DNA of 64,000 bases from Planctomycetota bacterium (GTDB lineage Bacteria; Planctomycetota; UBA1135; UBA2386). The DNA is taken from NCBI GenBank assembly GCA_016794035.1, contig JAEUHS010000044.1, positions 24,169 through 88,168 on the forward strand. The letters run 5' to 3'. The position numbers were made by a program, and so were the translations under genes. Below the pieces are notes generated by a model, which saw only the letters and a list, made by a program, of their open reading frames with translations, made no database searches and was not told where the DNA came from. Each line of letters starts with the position of its first letter. Positions within the stretch are counted from its first letter, which is position 1. Of this stretch, positions 45,331 to 62,372 are shown in pieces.

Positions 45331-45570
45331 ATGGACATCACGATCGTTCACTGCACGTCTTGAGGCTTCGGCCCACGCGCGGCGGGTCTCGCCGCGCAGA
45401 TCGAAGATGCGCTCGACCTCGAGGTGAAGCGCAAGACCGGGCGGCTCGGCCAGTTCGACGTGCTCGTCGACGGGCAGGTGATCGCCAGCCGCAGCGCTCG
45501 CGGGTGGCCCGATGCCGAAGCGGTGATCGCCAGCATCGAGGCCCTGCAGGCGCAGAAGCAGCGCAGTTGA
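45331..45570 (+). CDS. SelW/Rdx-family selenoprotein; TGA at 45361-45363 read as selenocysteine
   Basis: Reads MDITIVHCTS-U-GFGPRAAGLAAQIEDALDLEVKRKTGRLGQFDVLVDGQVIASRSARGWPDAEAVIASIEAL.... This has the CxxU redox motif, the G-x-G-x-F-x-V-x-VDG core and the (R/G)(F/W)P motif of Rdx proteins. GC3 continues across the TGA. Confidence 0.75.
45377..45397 (+). promoter_or_regulatory. SECIS-like hairpin
   Basis: Perfect 8-bp stem GCGCGGCG/CGCCGCGC with loop GGUCU, starting 14 nt after the UGA. The loop resembles the GGUC apical loop of the E. coli fdhF SECIS. Confidence 0.6.
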
Positions 45571-45584
45571 CGCCGCGCGGCGCT

Positions 45585-46553: not shown

Positions 46554-46619
46554 GGTGGCTGCGCGCGGCCAAGCATCATGGAGCGCGGTCGGCGCCACAA
46601 GCCCGAGGCGCGTGGCGGA

Positions 46620-46928
46620 TCAGCCGGCGGCCGGCGTCGCCGCGATCCACTGCCGCACGTGGCGGTCGAGCAGGAACGGCCAGATCGGCACCAGCGACGC
46701 CACGAACACCAGCAGCAGCCGCCGCACCGGCCAGCCGCGGTCGAAGTACGCCTTCACCAGCAGCCACACCAGCACCAGGAACAACACGCCGTGCACCATG
46801 CCGAACACGCGCACGGCCAGCGGCTCGCCCCAGACGTACTTCAGCGGCATCGCGATGCCGAGCAGCACCAGGTAGGAGACCGCCTCGATCAGCGAGGCGC
46901 GGCGCAACCAGGGCAGGGGATCGTCCAT
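46620..46928 (-). CDS. Small membrane protein, DUF3817-like
   Basis: LIEAVSYLVLLGIAMPLKY...HGVLFLVLVW pattern. 102 aa from ATG 46928. Confidence 0.6.
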   Translation of the reverse strand: MDDPLPWLRRASLIEAVSYLVLLGIAMPLKYVWGEPLAVRVFGMVHGVLFLVLVWLLVKAYFDRGWPVRRLLLVFVASLVPIWPFLLDRHVRQWIAATPAAG

Positions 46929-47068
46929 GGGGGCCCGCACGATCGCCGGGACGGGGTCCGCAGGCCAGGGCCTCGCTGCCACCGAAGCGGTCGCGATCCG
47001 GTTACCATCGGCGGTCGCCACCCGGGAACCTGCGCCGGCCGGCGCCGTCGATGCGCCGCTTTTGCCCC

Positions 47069-48031
47069 ATGACCATCTTCGATCGCCGTCGGTTCTTCTC
47101 CGCTGCCATGGCCGCCGCCGGCTTCACCGCGACCCGATCCTGGTGCACCGCGTGGTTTCTGCCGCAGGACCCCGATGGAACGGCGCGCGAACGACAGCTG
47201 CGCGCGGCGGTCGCGAAGGCCAGGGCCGAGGGCAAGCCGCTGCTGGTGTTCGTGGTGCCCGGCGATGGCACCGGCGAGGACCGGGCGGCGCAGAACGAAG
47301 CGGCGCTGCGCGGCCGCTGGTTCGGCGCGTTCCTGAACCACGGCGGGTCGCGGGCGCTGACGGAGCTGGCGCTGTGCGTGCCCGCCTGCGGCCGCATCGA
47401 CGAGGTGCGGCGGGTGACCGGGGCGAAGGCGATCGACGGTGCACCCCTGCTGCTGCTCGTCGATGCGACCGGCATCGGCGTCGAGGATGCGGCGCCGCCG
47501 AAGGTCACGCGGTTGGATCTGGACCTCGGCAGCCCGTTCGGGCAACACGGACGCTCGGAGGACTACGACCCGGCGGCGGACGAGCGCCGTGTCGAAGCGG
47601 GCATCGAGAAGCTGACCAAGGGCCTGCACCAGATCGTGCACCAGCACGGCGACAGCATGGCCGCGATGGCGGCCGCGGTCACGTCGCGCCTGTCGCCGGC
47701 GCAGGCGCAGACCCTGGCGGCGTGGTTCGGCGGCGGCGCGGCGCCGCCGGACGAACTGCTGGTCCGTTGCGCGGCCGAGGTGCGTCGCGCGATCGCCGAC
47801 CAGACGGACGAGCGGCGCGCCGCGCTGCAGCAGTCGCTGGTCGACGCGGTCGAACGCGAGATCGTGCACAAGCCGGTGCCGGGCGCGCGTTGGTACACCT
47901 CGGGCGGTTGCGGTTCGGAACCGGAGGAGAAGACGGCCGAGGAGAAGCAGAACGGCCGCATGATCGCCTGCGGCATGGGCATGGTGCCCACGCACTGCGA
48001 ACGGTTCCTGCAGTTGTTCACCGGGCAGTGA
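47069..48031 (+). CDS. Tat-signal protein, paralogue 1, with a C-terminal GCG-x18-CGMG-x-VP-x2-C module (candidate MNIO substrate)
   Basis: N-terminus MTIFDRRRFFSAAMAAAG. The C-terminus is PGARWYTSGGCGSEPEEKTAEEKQNGRMIACGMGMVPTHCERFLQLFTGQ. Paralogous to the next gene. Confidence 0.7.
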   Translation: MTIFDRRRFFSAAMAAAGFTATRSWCTAWFLPQDPDGTARERQLRAAVAKARAEGKPLLVFVVPGDGTGEDRAAQNEAALRGRWFGAFLNHGGSRALTELALCVPACGRIDEVRRVTGAKAIDGAPLLLLVDATGIGVEDAAPPKVTRLDLDLGSPFGQHGRSEDYDPAADERRVEAGIEKLTKGLHQIVHQHGDSMAAMAAAVTSRLSPAQAQTLAAWFGGGAAPPDELLVRCAAEVRRAIADQTDERRAALQQSLVDAVEREIVHKPVPGARWYTSGGCGSEPEEKTAEEKQNGRMIACGMGMVPTHCERFLQLFTGQ

Positions 48032-48047
48032 GCCGGAGACGCGCAGC

Positions 48048-48959
48048 ATGACGAACATCGATCGGCGCACCTGGTTCTCCTCGGCGGTCGCGGCGGCGGC
48101 GTTGACCGCCGTGCCCGATTGGCTGACGTTCTTCGCGCGCGACCGCCAGGATCCGAAGCCGCCGGCCACGCCCGGGCTGCGCGCGCGGCAGCTGCGCGCG
48201 GCCGCGGCGCAGGCGAAGGCCCAGGGCAGGCCGCTGCTGGCGTTCGTCGTGCCCGACGACGAGGCCGCCGCGTTCGCGCGCGGCCAATGGCTCGGCGCCT
48301 GGCTGATGCACGGCGGCGCCAGCGCCCGGCTCGATCTCGCCCTGTGTGTGCCGGCCGCGGCCAGCGCGGCGGAGCTCCGCGCGCTCGCACGGGTGCCGCT
48401 GCCGGACCCGGCGCCGGCGATGGTGCTGCTCGATGCGACCCTGCTCGACGACCCGGACGGGTTGGGCCTGAAGGCCACGCCGATCGAGGTCGACCTGCCG
48501 GCGGCGAGTCCGCCGGATCGTCCCGCGGACCTCGAGCGCCTGACGACGGCGCTGGCGGCGGCGTTGCCGCGGCACGCGGGCGCGCTCGACGCGATGGGGC
48601 AGCGCGTACGTGCGTCGCTTAGCGACGAGGCAGCGGACCGCGTGCTCGCCTGGCTCACGAGCAGCCGGAAGCTCGATGACGAGCTGCTGGTGCGCGCCAC
48701 GGCCTGGGTGCGCTGCACGCTGCCGAGCATGAAGGCCGAACGCGCGCGCACCGCGCAGGCGATGCTGCTGGCGGCGATCGAACGCGTGTGGATGCAGCGG
48801 CCGTTGCCCGGTGCGAGGTGGGGGCGAACCGAAGGCTGCGGCGTCGAGATCGAGGACCCCGAGGCGCCGGGCGGCGTGATCGGCGCCGGCGTCGAATGCG
48901 GCATGGGCCGGGTGCCCGAGGTCTGCCGGCGCTTCCTGGTGTTCTACACCGGGTCCTGA
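48048..48959 (+). CDS. Tat-signal protein, paralogue 2, with the same C-terminal Cys module
   Basis: GGAG RBS. N-terminus MTNIDRRTWFSSAVAAAA. The C-terminus is PGARWGRTEGCGVEIEDPEAPGGVIGAGVECGMGRVPEVCRRFLVFYTGS. Its stop abuts the next ATG. Confidence 0.7.
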   Translation: MTNIDRRTWFSSAVAAAALTAVPDWLTFFARDRQDPKPPATPGLRARQLRAAAAQAKAQGRPLLAFVVPDDEAAAFARGQWLGAWLMHGGASARLDLALCVPAAASAAELRALARVPLPDPAPAMVLLDATLLDDPDGLGLKATPIEVDLPAASPPDRPADLERLTTALAAALPRHAGALDAMGQRVRASLSDEAADRVLAWLTSSRKLDDELLVRATAWVRCTLPSMKAERARTAQAMLLAAIERVWMQRPLPGARWGRTEGCGVEIEDPEAPGGVIGAGVECGMGRVPEVCRRFLVFYTGS

Positions 48960-49838
48960 ATGACGGCGCGCGTCGGGTTCTCGCTGCAGCCGGACACCGA
49001 GTTCCTCGGCCTGCTCGAGCCGGTGCTGCGCGACGCCGACTACTTCGAGATCACGCCCGAGACGACGTGGCGCCGCGGCGGCGACGGCGGCTGGGTGCCC
49101 AACGGTTTCCACCGCGAGTTCCGGCGGCTCGGCGACGAACTGCACACGCCGTTCGTCGGCCACGCCGTGCACGGCAGCTTCGGCACCGCCGATCCGCGCG
49201 ATCGCGAACGCCAGGCGGCGTGGCAGCAGCGCATCGCCGCCGACCACGCGGTGTTCGACTTCCAGTGGTTCACCGACCACCTCGGCGCCGCGGTGCTGGA
49301 CCAACGCGCGCTGACCCTGCCGATCGCGCTGCCGATGCACGACGCCATGGCGCAGATCGTGCGCGAGCGGCTGGTGGCGCTGCAGCAGGTGGTGCCCGAC
49401 GTCGGCGTCGAGAACAGCGTGTTCTACTTCCTGCTCGGCGACTGGCTCGACGAGCCGGACTTCCTCGCACGCGTGCTGGCCGCGCCGCGCACGCACCTGC
49501 TGCTGGACCTGCACAACGTGTGGACGATGGCGCAGAACGTCGGTGCCGATGCGCAGGCGTGGCTCGACCGCCTCGACTGCTCGCGCGTGATCGAGATCCA
49601 CCTGTCCGGCGGCGAACGCAGCCAACCCGGCTGGCTGCCCGACGGTCGCACGCTGCGCCTCGACAGCCACGACCACGCCGTGCCCGACGAGGTCTGGGCG
49701 CTGTTCGAAGAGGTGCTGCCGCGCTGCACGAACCTGCGCGGTGTCACGCTCGAACGCATGGAGGGCAGCGTCGCGGCCGGCGACGTGTCGCAGGTGCAGG
49801 CCGAACTGCGTCGCATCCGCGAGGTGCTACGTGGCTGA
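48960..49838 (+). CDS. DUF692 / multinuclear non-haem iron oxidative enzyme (MNIO, MbnB/HvfB/BufB-like)
   Basis: TIM-barrel landmarks YFEITPE, HAVHGSFG, FTDHLG, VENSVFY, LLDLHN, EIHLSGG and DSHDHAVPDEVW. Confidence 0.75.
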   Translation: MTARVGFSLQPDTEFLGLLEPVLRDADYFEITPETTWRRGGDGGWVPNGFHREFRRLGDELHTPFVGHAVHGSFGTADPRDRERQAAWQQRIAADHAVFDFQWFTDHLGAAVLDQRALTLPIALPMHDAMAQIVRERLVALQQVVPDVGVENSVFYFLLGDWLDEPDFLARVLAAPRTHLLLDLHNVWTMAQNVGADAQAWLDRLDCSRVIEIHLSGGERSQPGWLPDGRTLRLDSHDHAVPDEVWALFEEVLPRCTNLRGVTLERMEGSVAAGDVSQVQAELRRIREVLRG

Positions 49839-50181
49839 TGTCGACGACCTCGTGCGCCAGCAGGCGCTGCTCGCCGACCTGCTGACGGCGCCGGATCCGG
49901 TCGCCGCGCTGCGCGAACGCCTGGCCGTCTCGCACGCGGATCCGACGCTGCGCGCGATCGACGAAGACGGCCTGCGCATTGCCGCGCTGCTGGTCGTCAA
50001 GCTGCGCTTCCAACGCCTGACCAACGGCTCGCGCCTGGCGAACGAGTGGTTCGAGCGCGATGCGCGCGGGTTCACCGACGCGTTTCGCGCCTATCACCGG
50101 GACGTGCCGCCGACGGCGCTCGATCCGTGGCGTGAGGCGGCGTCGTTTCACCAGTGGTGCACGGCTCGCGAGGAGTCTTGA
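49831..50181 (+). CDS. Short (116-aa) putative MNIO partner protein (DUF2063/MbnC-like?), possibly truncated
   Basis: The GTG start overlaps the MNIO stop by 8 nt. GC3 is high. Its position matches the partner slot of MNIO operons. Similarity to the DUF2063 N-domain is judged only loosely by eye. Confidence 0.4.
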   Translation: MADVDDLVRQQALLADLLTAPDPVAALRERLAVSHADPTLRAIDEDGLRIAALLVVKLRFQRLTNGSRLANEWFERDARGFTDAFRAYHRDVPPTALDPWREAASFHQWCTAREES

Positions 50182-50234
50182 GCCGTGCTCCTCGACGAGG
50201 CTGATGCCGTCACTCATGGATCAGCTTGACAATT

Positions 50235-50246
50235 GGGGGGGGGGGG
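50235..50246 (+). repeat. G12 homopolymer tract
   Basis: Twelve consecutive G. A TTGACA hexamer (50226-50231) lies 3 nt upstream, and TATG (ATG 50248) follows immediately. It sits at the high-GC/lower-GC junction. Confidence 0.95.
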
Positions 50247-50247
50247 T

Positions 50248-50724
50248 ATGCTGCTGCGGATGAAGGGACGACTCGCGGCGTTGACTCTCGCAGTCCTCAC
50301 GTCGGCTGGTATCCGGGCGCAGGAATGCCCGCCCGTGCCCCTGTATCAGGTCTTCGGCCCGTGGCCACCTGGCTACCCTGATACCAGCAACACCTTCTGG
50401 CTGCCCGGCCCGTCGGTGCCGGGAAACTGCCCGAACGAGCCATGTCGGTTCTACGCATGGATCCACGTCGAGATCTACACTCCGAGCCCGACAGGACCCG
50501 ATGTTACCGTCCAAGTGTGCCAGCGAACCAACACTTCCTTCGCATGCGGTCCTTTCCCGATTCCGCACGACGCGTCCCTGCCCGCATGGACCCAGATGGC
50601 GGAGGGCGACCTCAAGTGGGAGATCGCATGCGGAGAGTTCCTCCAGCAGGAACTCCAGATGGATACCCCGATCGGCTTCCTGACGTTCATTCAGGTGTCG
50701 CTCACATGCAGAACCTGCATCTGA
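50248..50724 (+). CDS. Secreted 8-Cys small protein, unknown function
   Basis: Signal peptide MLLRMKGRLAALTLAVLTSAGIRAQE. Eight Cys, including two ACG. Codon usage is visibly less GC3-biased than the flanks. Confidence 0.55.
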   Translation: MLLRMKGRLAALTLAVLTSAGIRAQECPPVPLYQVFGPWPPGYPDTSNTFWLPGPSVPGNCPNEPCRFYAWIHVEIYTPSPTGPDVTVQVCQRTNTSFACGPFPIPHDASLPAWTQMAEGDLKWEIACGEFLQQELQMDTPIGFLTFIQVSLTCRTCI

Positions 50725-50751
50725 GTTGATTGCTCCCGACCGCTTCTCCAC

Positions 50752-51564
50752 ATGAAAGGGCGATCGCTAGTAGCAGTCGGCTTGCTGCTTGCCGTGGCAG
50801 CGGTCACGCTTCTGATTGCCTTGAGGGCCCCTGGCGAATCACCAATCACGCCCTCGATTGGTTCTGCGGAGCCAGAGCGCCCTGCGCCCCCAAGCCAGGG
50901 TCTGGCCGGTTCGTCGGCCGACATACCAAGAGCCACGAGAGAGCCCTTTGCCGTCTTTGCGCCAACGGCAGCTGCACCAAACCTCACGTATGAAGGGTTC
51001 CTGCTTCAGTTCGTGTCGCGCGCCCTTCCTGACGATGCCAAGTCGAGCCTGTCGTCCGGAGAGCCTTCCGCGGACATGATGGCAGGCAACAAGAGCATCA
51101 ACCCGGGTCGCAAGCAGCTCGACGCCGAGCAAGCGGTTCGTCTAGAGAAAATGCTGAACGCACAGGCGGTCGAGGAGCAGGCGCTCCAGAGAGAGGACCG
51201 CCGCCTGTCGCGAGAGGCGCTCGTCCGTGCCATCGAGCGCGGCCAATTCGTCGCCAAGGAGCAGCCCGAGCTCACGGCAACCGACCCCGATCAGATGATG
51301 TTGGAGATTCGCCGGGCGCGTGAACGTTCTTCGCAAGACCAGAAGGCAACCATGGAAGCGCTGACGGCGCGCCTGGGAGAGCCGATGAAGGACTGGGCGT
51401 ATTCGCTCCAGACCACGCGAGAGCCGGACGGTGTGCCGCGCCAGACCGTGATCTGGTTTACGCGGGCTGCGGACCCGCAGGTCTTCGAGGTCCGCGATCG
51501 CCTTTCCGAGTTGCGGCGCCAGCAACGCGAAGACCTCAAGCAGTTCTTCGCGCGTCTGCCGTGA
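50752..51564 (+). CDS. N-terminally anchored Pro-rich/coiled-coil protein, unknown function
   Basis: TM helix LVAVGLLLAVAAVTLLIAL, then a charged helical region. Lower-GC codon usage. Confidence 0.5.
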   Translation: MKGRSLVAVGLLLAVAAVTLLIALRAPGESPITPSIGSAEPERPAPPSQGLAGSSADIPRATREPFAVFAPTAAAPNLTYEGFLLQFVSRALPDDAKSSLSSGEPSADMMAGNKSINPGRKQLDAEQAVRLEKMLNAQAVEEQALQREDRRLSREALVRAIERGQFVAKEQPELTATDPDQMMLEIRRARERSSQDQKATMEALTARLGEPMKDWAYSLQTTREPDGVPRQTVIWFTRAADPQVFEVRDRLSELRRQQREDLKQFFARLP

Positions 51565-51567
51565 CGT

Positions 51568-51903
51568 CTACACGCTGAACTTGAAGTGCAGCACGTCGCC
51601 GTCCTGGACGACGTATTCCTTGCCCTCGATGCGATACAGCCCCTTCTCGCGCGCCGCTGCGACGCTGCCGCACTTGACCAGGTCCGCGTAGGCGACGGTC
51701 TCGGCCTTGATGAAGCCGCGTTCGAAGTCGCTGTGGCTCACGCCCGCGGCCTTCGGCGCCGTGTCGCCCTGGTGGATCGTCCAGGCGCGCACTTCTTTCT
51801 CGCCGGCGGTGAAGTAGGTGCGCAGGCCGAGCAGGTGGTAGGTCGCCTTGATCAGCGCGCCGACGCCGGACTCCTGCACGCCGAGATTGTGCACCTGTTG
51901 CAA
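51568..51903 (-). pseudogene. Detached 3' fragment of ychF (C-terminal roughly 105 codons only)
   Basis: Encodes ...[57 protein letters not shown]...HFKFSV. This is near-identical to the C-terminus of the intact ychF at 54393. It lacks the G domain. Confidence 0.85.
51572..51885. repeat. Direct repeat copy A (314 bp, ychF 3' end)
   Basis: Aligns colinearly with 54397-54710. I count about 11 mismatches by eye. Almost all are synonymous third-position changes, and one gives Ile to Ser. Confidence 0.9.
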
Positions 51904-51988
51904 GAGCGGGTTGCGGTTGGCGGTCGGGAGTTCAGACCGTCATCGCTGTTGTGGCGGTGACGCGGGGGCTTGACACCAACTCAGCGGC

Positions 51989-52636
51989 ATGTCGATGATC
52001 CCGATCTGGTTGGAGGAAGATGTGACGAGCCCCGAGCCCCGAGCTGGCCAGGCCTTGTGGCTGGATGTGACACTCATCCAGCCCATCGTTGCAGAGGCAG
52101 CGGCGAGAGTGGCGCGTGATGCCACAGATCGTGACGACCTAATCCAGGAGGTCAATCTGAGCCTCCTGAGCCGGCCTGTACACACGGAAGCGCTGAAGAA
52201 CGTTCGCGCCTACGTCATCCGAATGGTGAGGAACCGGCACCTGAACGACGCAGCTGCCCGTGCGCGCCGGGGCCGAGAGGTGGCCTACGACACGGATTTG
52301 CTCCCTGCATCAGATCGAGACCCACGTACGGAAACCACGGAGGGGATCGACCGCGTCCTGGCAGCGCTTGGGCCGCGTGAGGCCCAGGTTCTTCAGGCAT
52401 GGCTGTGCGACCCGGTCATCAAGTCGGTTGCCCGAGCGCTTTATCTGGACGTCCGGCAGGTAAAGCGCTCGCTCGCAAGGTGTGCCCATACCGTGATGCA
52501 GTTCATCCGATGTTGCGATTCTTGTCCCCCTGCCTTGTCTCTGGATGGTGAGGTTGTCGTCCGACAGCCATCTGCTCGTCAATGCCATCCAGGAGATGGA
52601 AAGGAAGGAACAGCATGCCAAGCCGAGCTTCCCTAG
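51989..52636 (+). CDS. ECF-like sigma factor (divergent)
   Basis: Region-2-like DDLIQEVNLSLL ... VRAYVIRMVRNRHLND, and region-4-like LGPREAQVLQAWL...SVARALYLDVRQVKRSLARC. The start is uncertain. Confidence 0.55.
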   Translation: MSMIPIWLEEDVTSPEPRAGQALWLDVTLIQPIVAEAAARVARDATDRDDLIQEVNLSLLSRPVHTEALKNVRAYVIRMVRNRHLNDAAARARRGREVAYDTDLLPASDRDPRTETTEGIDRVLAALGPREAQVLQAWLCDPVIKSVARALYLDVRQVKRSLARCAHTVMQFIRCCDSCPPALSLDGEVVVRQPSARQCHPGDGKEGTACQAELP

Positions 52637-52965
52637 TGGCGGGACTCTTGGTCCCCTCTCTCTTGATGGGCGCGGTGTTCGCCCAACAGCACTCCAGCCA
52701 GGACTACACGAACTTACAGTGGGTCACCGCTGTGAAGGGAATCAAAACGGGGAGCGCCGTGACATCGTCGACCTACGACTCTGTTGACTACTGGGTTATC
52801 TGGCGCGATGGGCAGTATCTCTTGCGCGTGCGCAAGGACGACCCATCGCTCAGCCAGGGCGAATCGGATCTGCTCAAGCAAGCGCAAGACAACAACGAAG
52901 GAGTAGACGTCGAGATTGGCGATGACAACGGTCCCGTCGTAGATGGCGTCACCATTCGTCCATGA
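52615..52965 (+). CDS. Small secreted protein, unknown function
   Basis: AGGAAGG RBS before ATG 52615. Signal peptide MPSRASLVAGLLVPSLLMGAVFAQQ. Confidence 0.55.
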   Translation: MPSRASLVAGLLVPSLLMGAVFAQQHSSQDYTNLQWVTAVKGIKTGSAVTSSTYDSVDYWVIWRDGQYLLRVRKDDPSLSQGESDLLKQAQDNNEGVDVEIGDDNGPVVDGVTIRP

Positions 52966-54350
52966 ACTCTCCGTCAGCCGTTGCGTCGGCGTTGCTGGTC
53001 CTGAGCTTGGCTGGGCTCGGGATTTGGTACCTGCTTTCGAGCGATGGGCTGTCCGTGCCGGTGGGCCCCGAGGCGACGCCCATTCCATCGGATCCCGCCA
53101 CCCGCGAGGACGCAGCGGTTGTTCCGGTGCGGACCGCGGCCAGTCAGATTGCCGCATTGAACCCCAACGATGGTGCACCGAGTGTGAGTGTGCGCGTCTT
53201 GGACGTGGACCGGCACGACCCGGTAGCTGGCGTTGCCGTGCGCATCGAGGCCGAAGGTAGGCACTGCAACGCGATGACCGATTTCGATGGGTGGTGCGAA
53301 CTGGCATGGCCTGCACCTTCCGAGTCGGCGCAGTTGTCAGCAAGCTCCGACGATGGCTTGGTCCTGGACACCCCGCGACGAATCACCCGCGGTGATCGGC
53401 TCTGCAACTTGGCCTTTGCGCGAACGATCACGCTGTTCGGGGTGGTGCGCGATTCGCGTGGTGGGGGAGTGGCACACGCCCGGGTCTACCTAGCTGTGCC
53501 AAGACTGGAGAATTCCGGGAAGGCCCGGCTGGAGTCGAGTCTCCTAGCGCACGCCGACGCGGCAGGTCTGTACCGAGTGCAGCTGCGGCACGGTTGGCCA
53601 GCTGGCTCCCACCTGGTTGCTGTGGCCCGTCCATATGCTCCTGCCGTGGGTAGTCTATCCAACATCCAAGCCAGCACTACGCAGGTCGACCTGCAGTTCG
53701 CCGAGGGCTCGATCTTGCGAGTCCGTGTGCTGGATGAAGGTGGCCAAGGCGTTCCTCGCTGCAGGCTGAGAGTGATGACCGCGAGTTCCCCACTGCTCAG
53801 CGAATGGACGCCGGATGAGGTCCCGGAGGGCGCTGGCGGCGACCTGGGGCTCGTATCGCAACTGGTGGAAACCGACGAGACTGGGACCGCCACGGTTGCC
53901 GACTGGCCGGTGGGCCGCGATGCGATGGTACGAGTCTTCAACGAGCGGAATCGTCGTTTTTGCGTTATCGAAGCACCGGGAGTCGTCAGGGAGTCCGGTC
54001 GCCCCACGACGATTGCAGCGAACGAAGCTTCGAACGCGCAGATTCGCGTACGGGTCGAGACTCGGACGGCCGTGCAAGTCACGGGTCACTTGGAGGGCTT
54101 CTCGATGGGTGAGGCCGCACGACTCATTGTCACCCGGATCGGCGGCGACGGCGGGAACGAGATCGGGAGCATGCGTCTGTCGGAGGCCGGTGCCTTCGAG
54201 GCTCAGTTCAGCCAGTGGAGACGTGATCAAGGAGGGAGTTTCAAGCTCACGCTCCAGGCGGCGATGCGGGGGGGCGATTGGCAGCAAGAACTGGGGACCT
54301 ACGAAATTCACGGCGACCCGGTGCTGTCGGGAGTGATCATCCGCAGGTAG
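52962..54350 (+). CDS. N-terminally anchored protein with CarboxypepD_reg-like modules
   Basis: ATGA overlap with the upstream gene. TM helix ALLVLSLAGLGIWYLL. Modules such as VRVLDVDRHDPVAGVAVRIE, GVVRDSRGGGVAHARVYL and VRVLDEGGQGVPRCRLRV. Confidence 0.6.
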   Translation: MNSPSAVASALLVLSLAGLGIWYLLSSDGLSVPVGPEATPIPSDPATREDAAVVPVRTAASQIAALNPNDGAPSVSVRVLDVDRHDPVAGVAVRIEAEGRHCNAMTDFDGWCELAWPAPSESAQLSASSDDGLVLDTPRRITRGDRLCNLAFARTITLFGVVRDSRGGGVAHARVYLAVPRLENSGKARLESSLLAHADAAGLYRVQLRHGWPAGSHLVAVARPYAPAVGSLSNIQASTTQVDLQFAEGSILRVRVLDEGGQGVPRCRLRVMTASSPLLSEWTPDEVPEGAGGDLGLVSQLVETDETGTATVADWPVGRDAMVRVFNERNRRFCVIEAPGVVRESGRPTTIAANEASNAQIRVRVETRTAVQVTGHLEGFSMGEAARLIVTRIGGDGGNEIGSMRLSEAGAFEAQFSQWRRDQGGSFKLTLQAAMRGGDWQQELGTYEIHGDPVLSGVIIRR

Positions 54351-54392
54351 CGGGGTAGCCCGCAACCCGAGGGCCGGGAGACGGTCACCGGC

Positions 54393-55499
54393 TCAGACGC
54401 TGAACTTGAAGTGCAGCACGTCGCCGTCCTGCACGACGTATTCCTTGCCCTCGATGCGATACAGCCCCTTCTCGCGCGCCGCTGCGACGCTGCCGCACTT
54501 GACCAGGTCCGCGTAGGCGACGGTCTCGGCCTTGATGAAGCCGCGTTCGAAGTCGCTGTGGATCACACCGGCGGCCTTCGGCGCGGTGTCGCCCTGGTGG
54601 ATCGTCCAGGCGCGCACCTCCTTCTCGCCAGCCGTGAAGTAGGTGCGCAGGCCGAGCAGATGGTAGGTCGCCTTGATCAGCGCACCGACGCCGGACTCCT
54701 GCACGCCGAGGTCGGCGAGGAACGCCTTCGCGTCGTCGGGCTCGAGGTCGACCAGGTCGCTCTCGATCTGCGCCGAGATCACCGTGGCCTCGCAGTTGAG
54801 GTGGGTCTTGGCGTAGTCGCGCACCTTCTGCACGTAGGGGTTGCCGTCGGCGGTCGCGAGGTCGCTGTCCTTGACGTTGCAGGCGAAGATCACCGGCTTG
54901 TCGGTCAGCAGATAGAACATGCGCGCGATCGCCTTCTCCTCGGCGGTCAGGTCCGTCAGCATCGCCGGTTTGCCGGCGTTCAGCACCGGCAGGATCTTCT
55001 GCAGCACCGGGATCTCGGCGATCGCCTCCTTGTCGCCGCGCTTGGCCTGCTTGGTCTGTCGATCGATGCGCTTCTCGACCGACTCGAGGTCGGCGAGCAC
55101 CAGTTCGGTCGTGATGATCTCGATGTCGCGCACCGGATCGACCGTGCCCGACACGTGGTGGATGTCGACGTCCTCGAAGCAGCGCACCACCTGCACGATC
55201 GCGTCGACCTCGCGGATGTGGCTCAGGAACTTGTTGCCGAGCCCTTCGCCGGTCGCGGCGCCCTTGACCAGGCCGGCGATGTCGACGAACTCGATCGCCG
55301 CCGGGATCACGACGTTGGTCTTGGCGATCTTCTGCAGCACGTACAGCCGTTCGTCCGGAACGGTGACGACGCCGACGTTCGGATCGATGGTGCAGAACGG
55401 GTAGTTGGCGGCCTGCGCCTTCTGCGTGCGGGTGACGGCGTTGAACAGCGTCGACTTGCCGACGTTGGGCAGACCGACGATGCCGGCTTTCAGCGTCAC
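54393..55499 (-). CDS. ychF: Ribosome-binding ATPase YchF
   Basis: GTG start with GTGA overlap on the etfA stop. [20 protein letters not shown]-loop and the C-terminal TGS-like HFKFSV. Confidence 0.92.
54397..54710. repeat. Direct repeat copy B (314 bp, part of intact ychF)
   Basis: See copy A. Similarity ends abruptly after ...CACGCCGAG in both copies. Confidence 0.9.
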
Positions 55500-56479
55500 T
55501 TGCCGGCGACGATCTCGGCGATCGCCTTGGTCAGTGCCGGCACGATCTCGAACGCATCGCCGACGATGCCGTAGTCGGCGACCTTGAAGATCGGCGCGTC
55601 CGCGTCCTTGTTGATCGCGACGATCGTGCGCGCGGTGCGCATGCCGGCGAGGTGCTGGATCGCGCCGCTGATGCCGATCGCGATGTAGAGCGGCGGGCTG
55701 ACGACCTTGCCGGTCTGGCCGACCTGCTCGCGGTGCGGTCGCCAGCCGGCGTCGACCACGGCGCGCGAGGCGCCGACGGCGGCGACGCCCGGGCCGAACG
55801 CGGCGACCAGGTCCTCGACCAGCTTGAAGTGCGCGGCCTCCTTGAGGCCGCGGCCGCCGGAGACGACGACCTTCGCCTCCTGCAGCGGCGTGCGGCCGCC
55901 CGACGAGGCGATGACCTCCTTGACGACCGACAGCAGGTCGCCGGCCGGCGGTGCGGTCTTGCTGACCTCGGCGCTGCCGCTGCCTTCGGCGGCGGCGAAG
56001 TTGTTCGGCCGCAGCGTGGCACAGAACGGGGCCTTCTTGGCGTTGACGGTCATCGTCGCCTTGCCGGCGAACACCGGCTTCCTGGCGCCGAACGTGCCGC
56101 CGTCGCACGAGACCTCGACCACGTCGGTGACGACGCTGCCTTCGAGCAGCGCCGAGACGCGCGGCAGCAGGTCCTTGCCCATCGCCGTGTGCACCATCAG
56201 CACGGCCGTCGCAGCGGCGGCCTTGACCTGTTCGGCGATCGCGCGGGCGTAGGCGTCGCCGGAGTAGTTGGCGAACGTCGGGCCGTCGACGGCGACGACC
56301 TTGTGCACGCCGCTCTTGGCCAGCTCGGCAGCGGCGGCGTCGAGACCCGCACCACAGGCGACGGCGATGACCTTGCCGCCGCTCTTCTGGGCGAGCTGCA
56401 GACCGGCGGTGACGGCTTCCAGCGAGGTCCGCTTCAGCTGCCCACCACGAACCTCGGCGATGACGACGATGTTGCTCAT
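55496..56479 (-). CDS. etfA: Electron transfer flavoprotein alpha subunit
   Basis: C-terminal FAD block [37 protein letters not shown]. Confidence 0.92.
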
Positions 56480-56499
56480 GTTTGTTCTCGGGTTCGGTG

Positions 56500-57252
56500 T
56501 CAGAGGACCTTGGCTTCGTCGCGCAGAGCGGCGATCAGCGCCGGCACGGCATCGACGCCGGTGCCGAGGATCTTGCCGGCGGCGCGCGCCGGCGGCAGCG
56601 TCAGCGAGACGATCTCGAGCGCCGGAGCCGGCAGCGACGCGGCGGCCTCTTCGAGCGGCTTCTTCTTCGCCGCCATGATGCCCTTGAGGTTCGCGTAGCG
56701 CGGCTCGTTCAGACCCTTCTGGCAGCTGATCACCGCCGGCGTCTTGCAGGTCACGACCTCACGCGCACCTTCGATGTCGCGCTCGGCGGTGAACGTGCCG
56801 TCCGCGAGTTCGAGCTTCGCGACCTCGGTCACGCAGGCGAAGCCGAGCCGCGCGGCGAGGTTCGCCGGCAGCTGGTTGTTGTCCGAGTCGACCGCCTGGC
56901 GGCCGCACAGCACCAGGTTGCACGGCACGGACTTGATCCAGGCGGCCAGCGCGGCGGCGGTCGAGGCGCCGTCGAAGACCCATTGGTCGGTCGTCAGCAG
57001 CACCGCCTTGTCGGCGCCGCGGGCCAGCGTGTCGCGCAGTTCCTTCTGCGCGTCCTTGCTGCCGATCGTGACCACGGTCACGGTGCCGCTGCCGAGCTGT
57101 TCCTTGATGCGCAGCGCCTGCTCGAGCGCGAACTCGTCGTAGGCGTTCAGTTCGAACGACACGCCGGCGGGCTCGATCGACTTGCCGTCGGCGGCGATCT
57201 TGATCGTCGTGTCGGTGGCGGGGACGCGCTTGATGCAGACTACGATGTCCAT
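56500..57252 (-). CDS. etfB: Electron transfer flavoprotein beta subunit
   Basis: N-terminus MDIVVCIKRVPATDT, ELNAYDEFALEQALRIKE and CGRQAVDSDNNQ. Confidence 0.92.
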   Translation of the reverse strand: MDIVVCIKRVPATDTTIKIAADGKSIEPAGVSFELNAYDEFALEQALRIKEQLGSGTVTVVTIGSKDAQKELRDTLARGADKAVLLTTDQWVFDGASTAAALAAWIKSVPCNLVLCGRQAVDSDNNQLPANLAARLGFACVTEVAKLELADGTFTAERDIEGAREVVTCKTPAVISCQKGLNEPRYANLKGIMAAKKKPLEEAAASLPAPALEIVSLTLPPARAAGKILGTGVDAVPALIAALRDEAKVL

Positions 57253-57420
57253 GGGCTCGGTCGTCGGTGCGGAAAAACGGGCGAGCAGTCTAGCCGGGCG
57301 GGTGGTGGGGTCGACCGTGGAGCCGGGTTTTGCCGGGTGCGGCGGCGCAACTCGCGCCAGCCACGTCGGCGCCGCCGAAATTCCGGGCCGAACGGATACC
57401 CGGGCGGGCGGGCGCCTGCC

Positions 57421-58299
57421 TCAGACCGAGTCGAGGCCGTCGACCCAGAGCGCGGCCCGGTCGCCGTCGACGCTGCGCAGCATCGGACCCGGCACCTGGA
57501 ACGCGCCGGTCACCGCTGCGCCCAGACGTTCGCGCAGCTCGTGTCGATACGGCGGCAGCAGCAGGAACGACTCGACCAGGTCGGCGACGTGCAGCGCCGC
57601 CGGCAGCAGGCGCGCCAACGCTTCGTCGCTGCCGCCGAGTTCGTGCCAGTGACCCTGCAGGTCGGCGCCCTTGCCGCAGCAGGCGTAGGCGACGACGTGA
57701 CCGCCGTCTTCGAGCACGGCCGTGGTCATGCCCGGCGTCGTCAGCAGGCCCGACATCGTGTGGAGCGAACGTTCGACGCGCCACGGCTTCTGTTCGTGCA
57801 GTGCGTGCAGCGCGCCATGGTCGCGCGGCTCGGCCTGGCGCACGCCGGTCAGGTCGGGGCGCGGGCGCCGCGCCAGCACCAGGCACGTCTCGAGGGCGCC
57901 CGGGACGAAGCCGTGCCGCGCGTACAGCTCCGGCCGTTCGGCCCAGAGCAGCGTCAGATCGACGAGCGGAGCCGTCGCCGCCAGCGCCGCAGCCAGCACG
58001 TCGCCGGCGTGGCCGCGGCCGCGCCGCGCCGGATCGGTGGCGACCGAGCCGAGCAGGCACGCGCGCTGCGGCCCGTTCGCGCCATGCAGCGTCACCAGGC
58101 GGCAGGCGCAGTGGCTGACCAGCCGTTCGCCGTCGAGTCGCACGAAGAACCGGCCCTCGCCGTCGCTGCGGTACAGCTGCGGCCAGGTGTGCTGCACGCC
58201 GTAGAAGTGGCCGTCGAGCAGCCACCGATCGAGCTGCGGCAGCCAGCGCTGCACCGCCGCGCGGTCCAGCTGCTGCACGTCCGCGGCGACCGTGGTCAT
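57421..58299 (-). CDS. GNAT-family acetyltransferase (two-domain, Eis-like length)
   Basis: Acetyl-CoA motif VATDPARRGRGHAG. ATGA overlap with the upstream small flagellar-cluster gene. Confidence 0.6.
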   Translation of the reverse strand: MTTVAADVQQLDRAAVQRWLPQLDRWLLDGHFYGVQHTWPQLYRSDGEGRFFVRLDGERLVSHCACRLVTLHGANGPQRACLLGSVATDPARRGRGHAGDVLAAALAATAPLVDLTLLWAERPELYARHGFVPGALETCLVLARRPRPDLTGVRQAEPRDHGALHALHEQKPWRVERSLHTMSGLLTTPGMTTAVLEDGGHVVAYACCGKGADLQGHWHELGGSDEALARLLPAALHVADLVESFLLLPPYRHELRERLGAAVTGAFQVPGPMLRSVDGDRAALWVDGLDSV

Positions 58300-58574
58300 G
58301 GCCGCTGGGCGCGGAACGCGGCTTCGAGCTTCTGCCGCAGGTCCATCGCGGTCACGAAGCCGTCGTCGGCGGCCTTCAGCGCCTGCTGCAACTGCTCGGC
58401 GCCGCCGGCTGCGTCGCCGTCGGTCGCGCGGCGCTGCTCGTGCGCCAGCCTCTGCAGCGACTCGAGCAGCCGCTGGAACGACAGCGAGTCGGACTGCGGC
58501 GGCGCGGCCGGCGCGACGTTGCCGGCGTCGACCGGCTGGGTGCCCTGGATCGGGCGCATGGCGTCCTGGCTCAT
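58296..58574 (-). CDS. 92-aa protein at the end of the flagellar operon (function unclear)
   Basis: Starts 4 nt after the flgL stop. The C-terminus AMDLRQKLEAAFRAQ is faintly FliE-like, and I do not rely on that. Confidence 0.4.
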   Translation of the reverse strand: MSQDAMRPIQGTQPVDAGNVAPAAPPQSDSLSFQRLLESLQRLAHEQRRATDGDAAGGAEQLQQALKAADDGFVTAMDLRQKLEAAFRAQRP

Positions 58575-58578
58575 CGTG

Positions 58579-60006
58579 TCACCGGAGGAAGCTCTGCAGG
58601 GTGGTCTGGATCACGCGCGAGCTGACCTGCAGCGCGGCCTGGTAGGAGATGTCCTGCCGCTGCAGATCGAGGATCGCCGCGGCGATGTCGGTGTCCTGCA
58701 GCAGCGACAACGACTCGGTGCGCGCCACGCGCAGGCCTTCGACGCGGTTGCCGATCACGTCCATGCTCGACGAGCGGAAGCCGAGTTCGCGCAGGCCGTC
58801 GAGCACCGCATCGTGCGCGCCGTCGACCTCGGTCAGCATCTGCGCGACGCGGTCGCGCACGGCCTGGTCGGGCAGGCCGGCTTCGTTGCGCATCACGTCG
58901 CGCAGCGCGATCAGGGTCGTGAACGCGTCGAACGTGCCGTTGAACTTGACGTCCTCGGCGCCGGTCTGCGTGAGGTCGCGCACGTCGACGTTCAGCACCG
59001 TGCCGTCGTACGAGTTGCGCACCGCCACGCTGGAGCTGCCGAAGTCGTCGATCAGCGTGTTGCTCTGGCCGCCGTCGACCGAGAGGTTCGCCTGCGACGT
59101 GAACGTGCCGGTCAGCACGGCCGGCATGCCGGTCACGGTCAGCGAGATCGTGCGGCCGTCGGCGGTCGTGAAGGCGCCGTCGGTCACCGGGATCGCGACC
59201 TTGCTGCCGCCGTCGACGCTGAGGCCGTCCGGCGGCGTCGTGAACTCGAACGTCAGCGGACCGAGCGCCGTGGTCGGGCCGCTGCCGGCGGTCACGGTCG
59301 GCGGCGCGTCGCCGCCGAGACCGGCGAAGGTCACCGACAGCGAGCCGAAGCCGGTGCCGGTGTCGCCGCTGCCGACCGGCCGAGCGCCCGTCGCCGCGCT
59401 GCCGAGCGCCGGCGCGAACGTGGTCGCGCCGCGGTCGCGCTGCTGGAAGATCGCGTCGCCGGGGATGTTCAGCGCCGTCGTCACGCCGGGCGCCACGGTG
59501 ACGGCGACGCTCTGGCGATTGCCGTTGTAGACCACGCGGGTGCCGCCGGCGTCGGTGACCAGCGCGAACGGCGCGCTGCCGGTCTGCGTGCCGCCGAACA
59601 GGAAGCGGTCGCCGCGCCGGCTGTTGCCGATGCTGACCAGCTGGTTCAGCAGCTGGTCGACCTCGGCGGCGATGCTCTCGCGGTCGCCGCTGCTCAGCGT
59701 GCCGTTCGCCGCCTGCGTCGTCAGCTCGCGCACGCGCTGCATCAGCGACGACGCGTCCTCGAGCGACGAGGCGCCGGTGTTCAGTGTCTCGCGCGCCAGC
59801 GACACGTTGTCGACCATCTGGTCGAGGCTGCGCAGGTCGTTGCGCAACGGCAGGATCTGCAGCGCCGCCGCCGGGTCGTCGGACACTCGGTTGACGCGCC
59901 GGCCGGTCGCCACCTCCTGCTGGAGCTGCGAGTAGCGGAACAGGCTGTTCTGCACGTTGCCCAACGCCTGCGCGTAGAGCATGCCCTGCGTGATGCGGAT
60001 GCTCAT
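58579..60006 (-). CDS. flgL: Flagellar hook-associated protein 3
   Basis: Flagellin-like N-terminus MSIRITQGMLYAQALGNVQ...RVSDDPAAA and C-terminus DIAAAILDLQRQDISYQAALQVSSRVIQTTLQSFLR. ATG at 60006. Confidence 0.85.
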   Translation of the reverse strand: MSIRITQGMLYAQALGNVQNSLFRYSQLQQEVATGRRVNRVSDDPAAALQILPLRNDLRSLDQMVDNVSLARETLNTGASSLEDASSLMQRVRELTTQAANGTLSSGDRESIAAEVDQLLNQLVSIGNSRRGDRFLFGGTQTGSAPFALVTDAGGTRVVYNGNRQSVAVTVAPGVTTALNIPGDAIFQQRDRGATTFAPALGSAATGARPVGSGDTGTGFGSLSVTFAGLGGDAPPTVTAGSGPTTALGPLTFEFTTPPDGLSVDGGSKVAIPVTDGAFTTADGRTISLTVTGMPAVLTGTFTSQANLSVDGGQSNTLIDDFGSSSVAVRNSYDGTVLNVDVRDLTQTGAEDVKFNGTFDAFTTLIALRDVMRNEAGLPDQAVRDRVAQMLTEVDGAHDAVLDGLRELGFRSSSMDVIGNRVEGLRVARTESLSLLQDTDIAAAILDLQRQDISYQAALQVSSRVIQTTLQSFLR

Positions 60007-60008
60007 GG

Positions 60009-62372
60009 TCAGCGCCCCAGGTTGATCAGGGTGGTGGTCATGTCCTGCACGACGCTGATGAAGCGCGCCGCGGCCTCGTACGACTGCTGGAAGCGCAGCA
60101 TGTCGACCGTCTCCTCGTCGAGGTTGACGCCCGACACGCTGTCGCGTTGCGCCTGCAGCTGCTGCATCAGCTGGTTCTGCGCGGTCAGATCCGAGGTCGC
60201 CGCGGCGGTGCGGAAGCCGACGTCGCCGACCAGGTCGGCGTAGAAGTCCTCGATCGTCGTGCCCTCGAGGTCGTCGAGGTCGAGCCCGCGCAGCGACAGC
60301 AGGCGATCGAGGTTGCTGCCGTCGCCGTCGGCGGTGCCGATGCCCGCCGCGAGCCGGCTCGGGTTGGCGAGCAGGTCGCCGTTCACCTCGATGTCGCTCG
60401 CGTTCGAGCCGAGGAAGAACGCGTTCATGCCGATCGCGACCAGGAGGTCGCTGGTGTCGCTGTCGGCGAGCGCGTCGAGCGAGAACGCCTGGCCGTCGGT
60501 CGCCGAGATCGCGCCGGCGCCGAACGACACCTGGATGCCGTTGCCGAGATCGAGCGGCCGGCCCGGCTCGTAGCCCTCGCCGACGTCCAGCGTCGTGACC
60601 AGGTTGCCGGCGCTGTCCAGCACCCGCACGCGCAGGTCGGGCGTCTGGCCGATCAGTCCGTCGCCGGCCGGCACGAACGTGAACTGCTGGTTGCTGGCGC
60701 CCGTGTAGGTGCCTTCGGCGGCGATCGTGACGGCCTGTTCGCGGCCGCTCGCGGTCGTCGTCGACAGGCCGATCGCGCCGAGTGCCGTGCCCGCGCCGAC
60801 GTTGGCGAGGGTCAGCTGCTGCGCGCGACCCGGCTGCGCGCCGCGGATCGTCAGCCGGCCGCCGACCACGACCGCGCTGCCGGCGCTGCCGAGGTCGGCG
60901 TTGATCGCGGCGGCCAGTTCCTCGGCCGTCGCGGCACCCGGATCGACGAAGTCGGCCGCGTCGAGCGTCACCGTGTTGCTGACCGGCGCGGTCGCCGTGC
61001 CGGTCGTGACCGTGAAGCTGACCGGGAAGGTCTGGCCCGACAGGTCGAACGGCCCGGCGTTCTGCGACCCGATCGACGGCAGCGTGCCGCCGAAGGTGCC
61101 CAGGCCGTCGGGGTCGGCGTCGACGCGAGGCGAGAAGTCGAAGCCGTAGCCGGAGTCCGCGTTGATGCGCAGCCGGCCGGCCGGGTCGACGCTCGCGCTC
61201 AGGTGGTCGACGGCGCTGATGCGCGCGGCGACGTCCTGCAGCGACATCGACACCGGGTCGATCGCGATGCGCGTGCGTTCCATGCTGCCGGTCGCCTTGT
61301 CGGTGACGGCGACGTAGAGCTCGCCCTTCTGCACGTCGAAGTCGAAGCCCGACTGCGACAGGAACTCGTCGCCGCGCATGCCGTCGCCGTCGCCGTCCTG
61401 TGCGCCGTAGGCGGACGTCAGCGCGCCGAACGGGCCGTTGCCGGGCATGCCGGTCGAGTGCAGGCGGTTCCACTCCAGGATCGTCGAGCGCGCCAGCTGG
61501 TCGAGCCGGTCCTGGATGCCGGGCAACGAAGTGCTCTCCTGGCGCAGCAGCGCGGCGATGCGGCCTTCGCGGACCTGCGTCGCCACCGCGGCGGTGCCGA
61601 CGCTGACCTTGGTCCGGTTCGAGCCGTCCTTGCCGACGTTGAGCGCCGTGGCGCGGTCACCGGCGACCAGCAGCGAGCCGCCGACCAGGACGTCGAGGCT
61701 GCCGGAGCTGCGTTCGATCGTGCGGGCATCGAGCAGCTTGCCGAGTTCCTGCACGTGCTGCGCGCGCGTGTCGCGCAGGTCGTTGGCCTCGGCGCCGCTG
61801 GCCTCGGCCGAGACGATCTGGCTGTTCAGGCGCGCGACCGAGATCGCGAGGTCGTTGACCTGGCGCACGAGGCCGCGCACCTCGTCGAAGGTGCTGCCGG
61901 CGAGCGTGCCGAGGCGGTTCGAGGCGAGGCGGAAGCCCTGGCTCAGCTGGTTGCCGGCCTGCACGACGCCGCCGCGCAGCGCGCGATCGGCCGGGTCGGA
62001 GCCGAGCCTGCCCACGGCGCCGAACAGGTCCGCGATCGAGCCCGACAGGCCGCCGTCGGGTTCGGCCAGGATGCTCTCGATCTCGCTGAAGCGCGTGTGT
62101 TCGAGTTCGGCGGCGCCGACGAGACCCAGCTGCATCGCCAGCCGCGTCTCGAGGCCCTGGTCGACCATGCGCGTGATGCCGAGCACGTCGACGCCGCTGC
62201 CGATCTGGTAGCGACCGTTGACGCCGAACGGCATCGCGGCCGCCAGCTCGACGCGCTGCCGCGAGTAGCCGGCCGTGTTGGCGTTGGCGACGTTGTTGCC
62301 CGCCGTCTGCATGCCGAGGCGTGCCGCGGTCAGCGCCCGCAGTCCCGATCCGAGTCCGAAGCCGAACGTCAT
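60009..62372 (-). CDS. flgK: Flagellar hook-associated protein 1
   Basis: AGGAGG RBS. N-terminus GLRALTAARLGMQTAGNNVANANTAGYSRQ and C-terminus VNLDEETVDMLRFQQSYEAAARFISVVQDM. Confidence 0.9.
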   Translation of the reverse strand: MTFGFGLGSGLRALTAARLGMQTAGNNVANANTAGYSRQRVELAAAMPFGVNGRYQIGSGVDVLGITRMVDQGLETRLAMQLGLVGAAELEHTRFSEIESILAEPDGGLSGSIADLFGAVGRLGSDPADRALRGGVVQAGNQLSQGFRLASNRLGTLAGSTFDEVRGLVRQVNDLAISVARLNSQIVSAEASGAEANDLRDTRAQHVQELGKLLDARTIERSSGSLDVLVGGSLLVAGDRATALNVGKDGSNRTKVSVGTAAVATQVREGRIAALLRQESTSLPGIQDRLDQLARSTILEWNRLHSTGMPGNGPFGALTSAYGAQDGDGDGMRGDEFLSQSGFDFDVQKGELYVAVTDKATGSMERTRIAIDPVSMSLQDVAARISAVDHLSASVDPAGRLRINADSGYGFDFSPRVDADPDGLGTFGGTLPSIGSQNAGPFDLSGQTFPVSFTVTTGTATAPVSNTVTLDAADFVDPGAATAEELAAAINADLGSAGSAVVVGGRLTIRGAQPGRAQQLTLANVGAGTALGAIGLSTTTASGREQAVTIAAEGTYTGASNQQFTFVPAGDGLIGQTPDLRVRVLDSAGNLVTTLDVGEGYEPGRPLDLGNGIQVSFGAGAISATDGQAFSLDALADSDTSDLLVAIGMNAFFLGSNASDIEVNGDLLANPSRLAAGIGTADGDGSNLDRLLSLRGLDLDDLEGTTIEDFYADLVGDVGFRTAAATSDLTAQNQLMQQLQAQRDSVSGVNLDEETVDMLRFQQSYEAAARFISVVQDMTTTLINLGR

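Follow-up and report, generated by a model that had tools for sequence, protein, structure and literature searches.

In Escherichia coli K-12, the 15-kb prophage e14, which carries its own integrase (intE) and excisionase (xisE) genes, excises site-specifically (PMC13626634); when we compared the last 165 nt of icd with the displaced icdC stub at this site, 12 differences were counted, 10 of which were synonymous. In homology-facilitated illegitimate recombination, one homologous anchor and one non-homologous joint together add foreign DNA to a genome, as has been shown in Acinetobacter, Streptococcus pneumoniae and Pseudomonas stutzeri, and also in E. coli conjugation (PMC3240628; PMC5361080). 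At Rhs, contact-dependent inhibition (CDI) and type VI secretion system (T6SS) effector loci, according to a passage in PMC5361080 that cites Jackson et al. 2009, the incoming piece recombines in the conserved part of the gene and the old 3' end is left orphaned downstream. Finally, pipolins with large serine recombinases have been reported to be integrated at ychF (PMC11551731). Here, we compare these systems with a duplicated 3' end of ychF in a stretch of 64,000 nt, which we refer to as the window and to which all coordinates apply, from an uncultured member of the Planctomycetota whose nearest YchF relatives were all labelled Planctomycetota. The duplication most likely represents a scar of an ordinary, albeit instructive, kind and is no new mobile element.

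The window has a GC content of 71% and contains a single long direct repeat, which was placed by a repeat search at 51572-51871 and 54397-54696, with 96% identity and a spacing of 2825. A base-by-base comparison extended the homology to 318 nt without gaps, starting at the stop codon and stopping sharply at the other end, at positions 51885 and 54710, respectively. We refer to the 2 copies as copy A and copy B (Table 1), and to the junction between copy A and the 2.5-kb cassette that separates it from copy B as J1. An earlier sequence-only reading of this DNA had described a gapless repeat at 51572-51885 and 54397-54710 with about 11 mismatches. The number within these limits is exactly 11, to which the full repeat adds one synonymous difference in the last Val codon and the 2 stop codon changes. 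The same reading took copy B for the true end of ychF and copy A for a detached fragment with a different stop codon, and this was confirmed by the base-by-base comparison; it was also right that the cassette between the copies has a lower GC content (0.58 to 0.64) and that copy A uses AAA and GAA where copy B has AAG and GAG.

The repeat is not an assembly artefact, because its junctions were seen again in assemblies made independently. At least 10 listed sequencing runs had Logan contigs that covered positions 51763-54426 at 100% identity and broke within the repeats, and junction J1 was also present in the Logan contigs L081 to L089. Another 2 Logan contigs, L224 and L225, contained the gene for the 270-amino acid protein to the left of copy A and ended about 33 nt beyond its stop codon, at the start of copy A. 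A sister strain was represented by the JGI metagenome 3300009870, in which contig L222 (99.8% identical to the window) contained all of copy A plus 7 nt past J1, while contig L223 (99.7% identical) covered the cassette, ychF and etfA, with the same junctions as in the window. All contigs found had the occupied arrangement. Since every junction was recovered in this way, the possibility of a misassembly was rejected.

Copies A and B differed at 12 of the 315 coding bases. One of the differences replaced an Ile with a Ser in copy A, at a site where Ile was invariant in 44 of the 44 relatives listed, and the remaining 11 were synonymous third-position changes, in line with the nearly pure synonymous pattern and the single Ile to Ser change that had been read from the sequence. 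Random substitutions would be synonymous in 24% of the cases, and the probability of observing at least 11 synonymous changes out of 12 under neutrality was 1.6e-6. The divergence at synonymous sites (dS) was estimated to 0.16, or to 0.13 if only the differences common to the window and the sister strain were counted, all 9 of which were synonymous, whereas the divergence at nonsynonymous sites (dN) was 0.004. The stop codons were unlike at 2 bases, TAG in copy A and TGA in copy B. Since the differences are almost exclusively synonymous and both stop codons were retained despite a 2-base change, the comparison indicates that the copies diverged as the ends of working ychF genes in separate lineages, under purifying selection. 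The earlier proposal that copy A is an orthologous ychF end, as opposed to a decayed local duplicate, thereby gained support. In its present position, copy A is probably a pseudogene. The first 26 nt of the repeat were the same in both copies, and the differences were absent from a block of 129 nt, which represents a clustering beyond chance (P = 0.014) in a segment where the relatives vary as they do elsewhere. The block is likely the footprint of a crossover or a conversion event.

The 2 copies were 95.6% identical to each other and at most 92.5% identical to any database relative. They ranked the relatives in the same order of similarity, and had residues in common that were found in no relative. 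Because the copies are each other's nearest sequences and share such lineage-specific residues, both come from one narrow lineage, and the donor was a close relative. This speaks against a foreign lineage as the source of copy A, as had been suggested. Nor did the idea of a donor with a lower GC content hold, since the GC content at third codon positions (GC3) was 0.943 in copy A, 0.924 in copy B and 0.954 in the remainder of ychF, and since the AAA and GAA codons were absent from copy A in the sister strain.

To place the cassette in context, we turned to the gene order in related genomes. The nearest public ychF genes were 87% to 90% identical in DNA sequence, and the closest relatives had amino acid identities of no more than 89% in the genome scan and 91% in the protein search. 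No record with the exact YchF or EtfA sequence of the window was found. A conserved backbone was identified that consists of genes for a sulfatase, DndB and so on to DUF3817, followed by a variable stretch and then by ychF, etfA, etfB, GNAT and flagellar genes. The stretch between DUF3817 and ychF differed in every lineage. In L001, the genes etfBA and ychF were followed by 2 small genes and then by homologs of the genes for the 146-amino acid protein and the MNIO (MbnB-like) protein in the window, which is the arrangement on the left flank of copy A. In L100 and L101, homologs of the small protein (63% identity) and of the 462-amino acid protein (49% identity) encoded in the cassette were located immediately beside ychF in a convergent orientation, and a second fragment of ychF was absent. 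A related module was located at the same place beside ychF in L092, with the module, ychF, etfA, etfB and GNAT in the same order as in L100 and L101, and a homologous module was also found in L099, there between glycosyltransferase genes and with no ychF nearby. The 3 genes of the cassette, which code for an ECF (extracytoplasmic function)-like sigma factor, a small protein and a membrane protein with CarboxypepD_reg domains, are referred to as the module. In L100, DUF3817 was followed by NmrA, whereas in the window the segment from the MNIO cluster through copy A comes after DUF3817.

With these 2 types of neighborhoods at hand, the window looks like a tandem of 2 alternative arrangements downstream of ychF, both of which have retained a ychF end of their own. 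That the repeat stops at the stop codon is explained by the gene contents of the lineages, which diverge from this point. Only junction J1 is new, while both flanking arrangements already exist separately in relatives. When the 100 nt to the right of J1 were compared with the sequences that precede the module in L100, L099 and L092, nothing but the heptanucleotide repeat described below and a short promoter motif was shared. No second ychF 3' end was identified in 222 other ychF 3'-end loci, and only the host's own strains contained 2 copies; double matches in L010 and L150 were rejected as frameshifts within one gene.

The GC3 values of the cassette genes (0.65 to 0.72) were lower than those of the backbone genes (0.90 to 0.95). 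The modules in L100 and L092 were equally low (0.70 to 0.73) on a high-GC3 backbone, which shows that a low GC3 characterizes the module as such and does not signal that it arrived recently.

The comparison with the sister strain provided a view of more recent changes at the locus (Table 1). Copy B was identical in the 2 strains, while copy A differed at 6 of the 318 nt, as compared to 0.5 expected (P = 1.6e-5). At repeat positions 27 and 51, copy A of the sister strain had the derived T of copy B, which suggests that a short conversion tract from copy B is present at the repeat edge in this strain. At positions 90, 93 and 149, copy A of the sister strain agreed with copy B and with every outgroup, and one further site was private to the sister strain. 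Because of this agreement, the AAA, GAA and Ser codons in copy A of the window are changes that arose recently in this strain, in a stub on which selection no longer acts.

A tract of high divergence between the strains covers the 3' half of etfA and extends into the first codons of ychF. Of the differences located in etfA, 19 were synonymous, and the dS value of 0.17 was similar to that between copies A and B. Since the divergence of the tract equals that of the copies, DNA of a lineage at this distance enters the locus by homologous recombination. When polarized with 5 outgroups, 9 of the 16 derived changes in the etfA tract of the sister strain were from GC to AT, on a longer branch, as were all 4 in copy B; the corresponding numbers were 0 of 7 in the etfA tract of the window and likewise none in copy A, both on shorter, GC-neutral branches. 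Polarizing the copies in this manner to call the resident one gave no separation, and the lineages were not separated either when derived changes were counted in etfA and in the 5' part of ychF.

The locus has features in common with each of the described systems. As in e14 and phage 21 at icd, a gene 3' end is present twice around an insert, the gene is intact, the stub is a pseudogene and the differences are mostly synonymous, all of which would be expected of a site-specific element. Unlike e14, the insert at ychF is only 2.5 kb, has neither a recombinase nor any phage genes and corresponds to a normal chromosomal module in relatives; there was no repeated use of the site among the 222 ychF loci, and no tyrosine or serine recombinase gene of its own in the cassette. 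The pipolins carry a primer-independent PolB and a recombinase, neither of which is present in the cassette, and the common point is limited to ychF as the target gene. The loci for Rhs, CDI and T6SS effectors also have a 3' stub beyond the new 3' end and its cargo, as observed here, but these are toxin tips with immunity genes under diversifying selection, whereas the 2 ychF ends are the same except for one residue, and the cargo is a sigma factor module with no toxin tip or immunity gene, so that nothing points to a new C-terminus having been selected for.

The resemblance to homology-facilitated illegitimate recombination is that the ychF locus has exactly one novel junction, with homology at the level of lineage divergence on the opposite side. 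Orthologue-like divergence was found on the homologous side (dS 0.13 to 0.16, dN 0.004), the boundaries other than J1 were seen in relatives, of the L001 type on the left and of the L100 and L092 type on the right, and a similarly diverged import was present at the locus in the form of the etfA tract. The difference from the known cases is that these are experimental and based on selectable markers, while the mechanism at ychF has to be inferred from a natural product.

Taken together, we give a probability of roughly 0.5 to the duplicated ychF end being the recombination scar of 2 close planctomycete lineages with different genes downstream of ychF. One parental lineage would have carried the MNIO cluster, 2 small genes and ychF, and the other would have carried the module with the ECF-like sigma factor, the small protein and the CarboxypepD_reg protein, followed by ychF. 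To bring the 2 arrangements into tandem, one joint without homology (J1) would have been combined with one homologous exchange, either within ychF or next to it. The route may have been a Campbell-type single crossover of a circularized fragment within the 318-bp homology or, alternatively, homology-facilitated illegitimate recombination of a linear fragment, and a dedicated recombinase would not be needed. Copy A would afterwards have been non-functional, gathering changes (AAA, GAA and Ile to Ser) and being patch-converted by copy B.

As for the direction, we tentatively favor that the module arrived together with copy B and that copy A is the original end, now displaced, because this is the usual outcome of such insertions, because the strains are identical to the right of J1 and about 1% apart to the left of it, and because the derived changes in copy B resemble those of the sister etfA tract, at a distance of 0.8 kb on the far side of the 5' part of ychF. 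The sequence-only reading had copy A as the incomer, whereas the evidence leans, if anything, the other way. Several points weigh against the scar and the direction that we favor. A genome of either pure parental lineage was not found, the nearest relatives being about 90% identical in ychF DNA, and both mechanism and direction are for this reason only inferred. In L100, L099 and L092, the sequences that precede the module have diverged too far to be of use in a search for microhomology at J1. The arguments on direction depend on few sites, and the AT-biased lineage could also be the resident. A recombinase could be encoded elsewhere in the genome, as the scans covered the ORFs (open reading frames) of the window, about 10 of which had no Pfam match, and integration at ychF has been documented for some elements with serine recombinases (PMC11551731).

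The opposite direction is a doubtful but serious competitor. The resident arrangement would then be DUF3817, possibly NmrA, the module and ychF with copy B, as in L100, and copy A would be the passenger stub of an imported linear fragment consisting of the MNIO cluster, the genes for the 163- and 270-amino acid proteins and the last 318 nt of the donor ychF. The fragment would have replaced NmrA, having entered by homologous recombination within DUF3817 or further to the left and by illegitimate joining at J1 on its other side. This is the textbook outcome of the homology-facilitated process, in which an anchor on one side leads to a gain of foreign DNA and a loss of adjoining recipient DNA (PMC3240628; PMC5361080). 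It agrees with the modules adjoining ychF in L100, L101 and L092 and with DUF3817 and NmrA in L100 in place of the segment from the MNIO genes to copy A, and the equally low GC3 of the module in L100 and L092 means that its composition is no sign of arrival. Against this direction, the lineage of the window is about equidistant from L001 and from L100 and L092, and synteny with L100 therefore does not identify the resident arrangement. Furthermore, the supposed import is more diverged between the strains near J1 (about 1%) than its flanks (0% to 0.1%), although J1 is common to both, and the shorter, GC-neutral branch of copy A is like that of the window etfA tract.

That the 2.8-kb unit is the remnant of a site-specific element targeting ychF, or a non-autonomous one similar to e14 and phage 21 with its integrase lost or acting in trans, we consider unlikely, although the anatomy is exactly that of e14 at icd (PMC13626634), the first 26 nt shared by the repeats could hold a core site, and pipolins provide a precedent for integration at ychF (PMC11551731). 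Searches of the 3 cassette proteins against Pfam, PHROGs and NCBIfam gave matches to sigma-70/ECF and CarboxypepD_reg families only, and to no recombinase or phage family. No integrase, transposase, excisionase, phage gene or other mobile-element gene was identified with Pfam among the approximately 48 window ORFs scanned, in agreement with the earlier remark that the window has no integrase, about 10 of these ORFs being without any match, and no relatives of the cassette were found among viral contigs and plasmids. The cargo is a chromosomal regulatory module that occupies the same place in relatives without flanking repeats, and none of the 222 other ychF loci contains a second ychF end. Moreover, the outer end of the repeat is where orthologous arrangements diverge, for which ordinary recombination suffices and no att site is required. 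The same results told against the view of this site as an insertion hotspot for integrative elements. Even less plausible is a related idea, in which the 2825-bp unit would be a non-autonomous integrative cassette that attaches at the 3' end of ychF and is mobilized by a recombinase encoded elsewhere, spreading a possibly phase-variable sigma module among related Planctomycetota. A local tandem duplication, finally, would make copy A an expressed gene for a stand-alone YchF C-terminal domain (a 111-amino acid ORF at 51568-51903), with both copies under purifying selection. The reading frame of copy A is indeed open, TTG being a possible start codon at 18 nt past the end of the repeat, and the differences are nearly all synonymous. 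We find this very improbable, as it leaves unexplained the unrelated DNA between the copies, which is a unit beside ychF in relatives, the Ser at the otherwise invariant Ile, and the fact that copy A changes about 10 times faster than its surroundings between the strains while copy B is unchanged; in addition, the same dS was observed in the neighboring etfA tract, which is plainly an import.

Table 1. Coordinates of features at the ychF locus and numbers of differences between the window and the sister strain.
Feature	Coordinates	Strand	Evidence or remark
Two low-GC3 ORFs of no known function, 163 and 270 aa (158 aa and 162-183 aa in public annotations)	50233..51564	+	Native-looking flank
Copy A, detached ychF 3' end (105 codons and TAG stop)	51568..51885	-	Pfam YchF-GTPase_C, E 2e-38; abuts the end of the 270-aa ORF
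J1, sole novel non-homologous junction; ychF codon boundary joined about 80 nt upstream of the promoter-like site of the module	51885..51886	.	Homology to copy B stops abruptly
Low-GC3 cassette of 2.5 kb with 3 genes (ECF-like sigma factor, small secreted protein, membrane CarboxypepD_reg protein)	51886..54392	+	
Promoter-like site before the sigma gene (TTGACA, 18-nt spacer, GATGAT)	51970..51999	+	GGGCTTGAC motif kept in L100
ECF-type sigma-70 family protein, 215 aa	51989..52636	+	Pfam Sigma70_r2, E 5e-7; NCBIfam sigma70-ECF, E 3e-10, below curated cut-off
Tandem repeat of the heptanucleotide CGAGCCC (2.7 copies) within the 5' end of the sigma gene	52026..52044	+	
Small protein with signal-peptide-like N-terminus, 116 aa as called in public contigs	52615..52965	+	
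Protein of 462 aa with N-terminal hydrophobic segment and CarboxypepD_reg-like domains, convergent with ychF	52962..54350	+	Pfam
Copy B, 3' end of intact ychF (TGA stop)	54393..54710	-	Base-by-base comparison
ychF, 368 aa, GTG start overlapping the end of etfA	54393..55499	-	Pfam MMR_HSR1 and YchF-GTPase_C
Recombination tract, 3' half of etfA and first ychF codons	55488..55955	-	27 strain differences in 468 nt (5.8%)
Strain differences	41010-47554		0
Strain differences	47555-51892		23, densest (about 1%) from about 49.7 kb to J1
Strain differences	51999-55124		0
Strain differences	55956-64000		8

The sigma gene of the module contains a heptanucleotide repeat. With the 2.7 copies present in the window, the ORF of 215 amino acids is in frame, and the gain or loss of one unit would shorten it to 24 to 45 amino acids. 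In L100 (positions 4354-4437), there were 12 full units, which is out of frame by one unit and gives an ORF of 79 amino acids, while 10 or 13 units would give 286 to 293 amino acids. In L092 (reverse strand, near 11380-11360) and L099 (about 3520-3545; CCAGAGC), approximately 2.5 to 3 copies were identified, out of frame, with ORFs of 15 amino acids. Because the copy number differs among the modules and a change of one unit breaks the frame, the repeat, located just after the ATG codon, is a candidate for a slipped-strand phase-variation switch acting on an ECF-like sigma factor. If it is a true phase-variation switch, it may be worth more than the ychF repeat.

The longest ORF for the small protein starts at 52582 and codes for 127 amino acids, and the protein was 63% to 67% identical to the module homologs in L100 and L099. 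For the 462-amino acid protein, only 2 homologue clusters were found among 5.8 billion proteins, at 51% to 54% identity, and its similarity to the 497-amino acid protein in L092 was marginal in a BLASTP comparison. The CarboxypepD_reg family is common in the host genome, since a protein of 989 amino acids encoded elsewhere in the window, at 12267-15236, contains at least 6 such domains. The GC3 of the module ranged from 0.65 to 0.73 in 3 lineages (window 51886-54392; L100 4530-6815; L092 8730-10223), as compared to 0.93 to 0.95 in the backbone, and the module proteins were 49% to 63% identical where YchF was about 90% identical. Either very fast evolution or repeated exchange of the module would account for this. 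It was also noted that the JGI assembly of the sister strain breaks on either side of positions 51893-51998, a segment of 106 nt outside the repeat that holds the promoter-like site, and the break could be due to low coverage or to local variation. A scan for terminators gave no more matches than expected by chance, and no tRNA gene was found in the window.

The GTG start codon of ychF (55499) overlaps the stop codon of etfA (55496) by 4 bases, and this overlap suggests that etfB, etfA and ychF are translationally coupled; the order of the genes in the operon was kept in all close relatives. We also scanned metagenomes with a peptide of 14 residues, which yielded 120 loci of unrelated phyla, none of which was more than 80% identical in ychF DNA, and no strain of a parental type. 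Since the peptide is present across unrelated phyla, it was rejected as a lineage-specific marker.

On the left flank of copy A, the ORFs for the 163- and 270-amino acid proteins had GC3 values of 0.73 to 0.77 and no match in Pfam, PHROG or NCBIfam, and BLASTP gave no homology between these proteins and those encoded by the 2 genes in the same position in L001. The MNIO gene (MbnB/TglH/ChrH family) at 48960-49838 is followed by a small partner ORF and is part of a cluster that spans 47051-50181. Upstream of it are the genes for 2 paralogous proteins of about 300 amino acids (47051-48031 and 48048-48959), both with twin-arginine-like signal sequences and Cys-rich C-termini (CG..E...CGMG.VP..C..F), and with no match in Pfam, NCBIfam or PHROG. 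Judging from these features, the cluster is possibly similar to those for RiPPs (ribosomally synthesized and post-translationally modified peptides), with unusually large precursors. In the segment 49679-51212, the divergence between the strains was about 10 times that of the flanks, and small indels at 49926-49933, 50235-50236 and 50496 altered the ORFs for the 146- and 163-amino acid proteins. Public annotations assign genes of differing lengths to this segment (116, 158 and 42 amino acids), and the 163-amino acid ORF may for this reason not be a stable gene.

The ychF locus illustrates that the detached end of a gene may preserve the history of recombination among close lineages, the split of which is dated by the synonymous differences, and the sister strain shows the stub in the course of decaying and being patch-converted. 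It also carries 2 warnings, namely that direct repeats of a gene end are no proof of an integrative element and that a few AT-ending codons are no sign of the composition of the donor. Gene exchange in the Planctomycetota has been little studied, and the locus provides direct evidence of homologous exchange between lineages that are about 4% to 6% apart.

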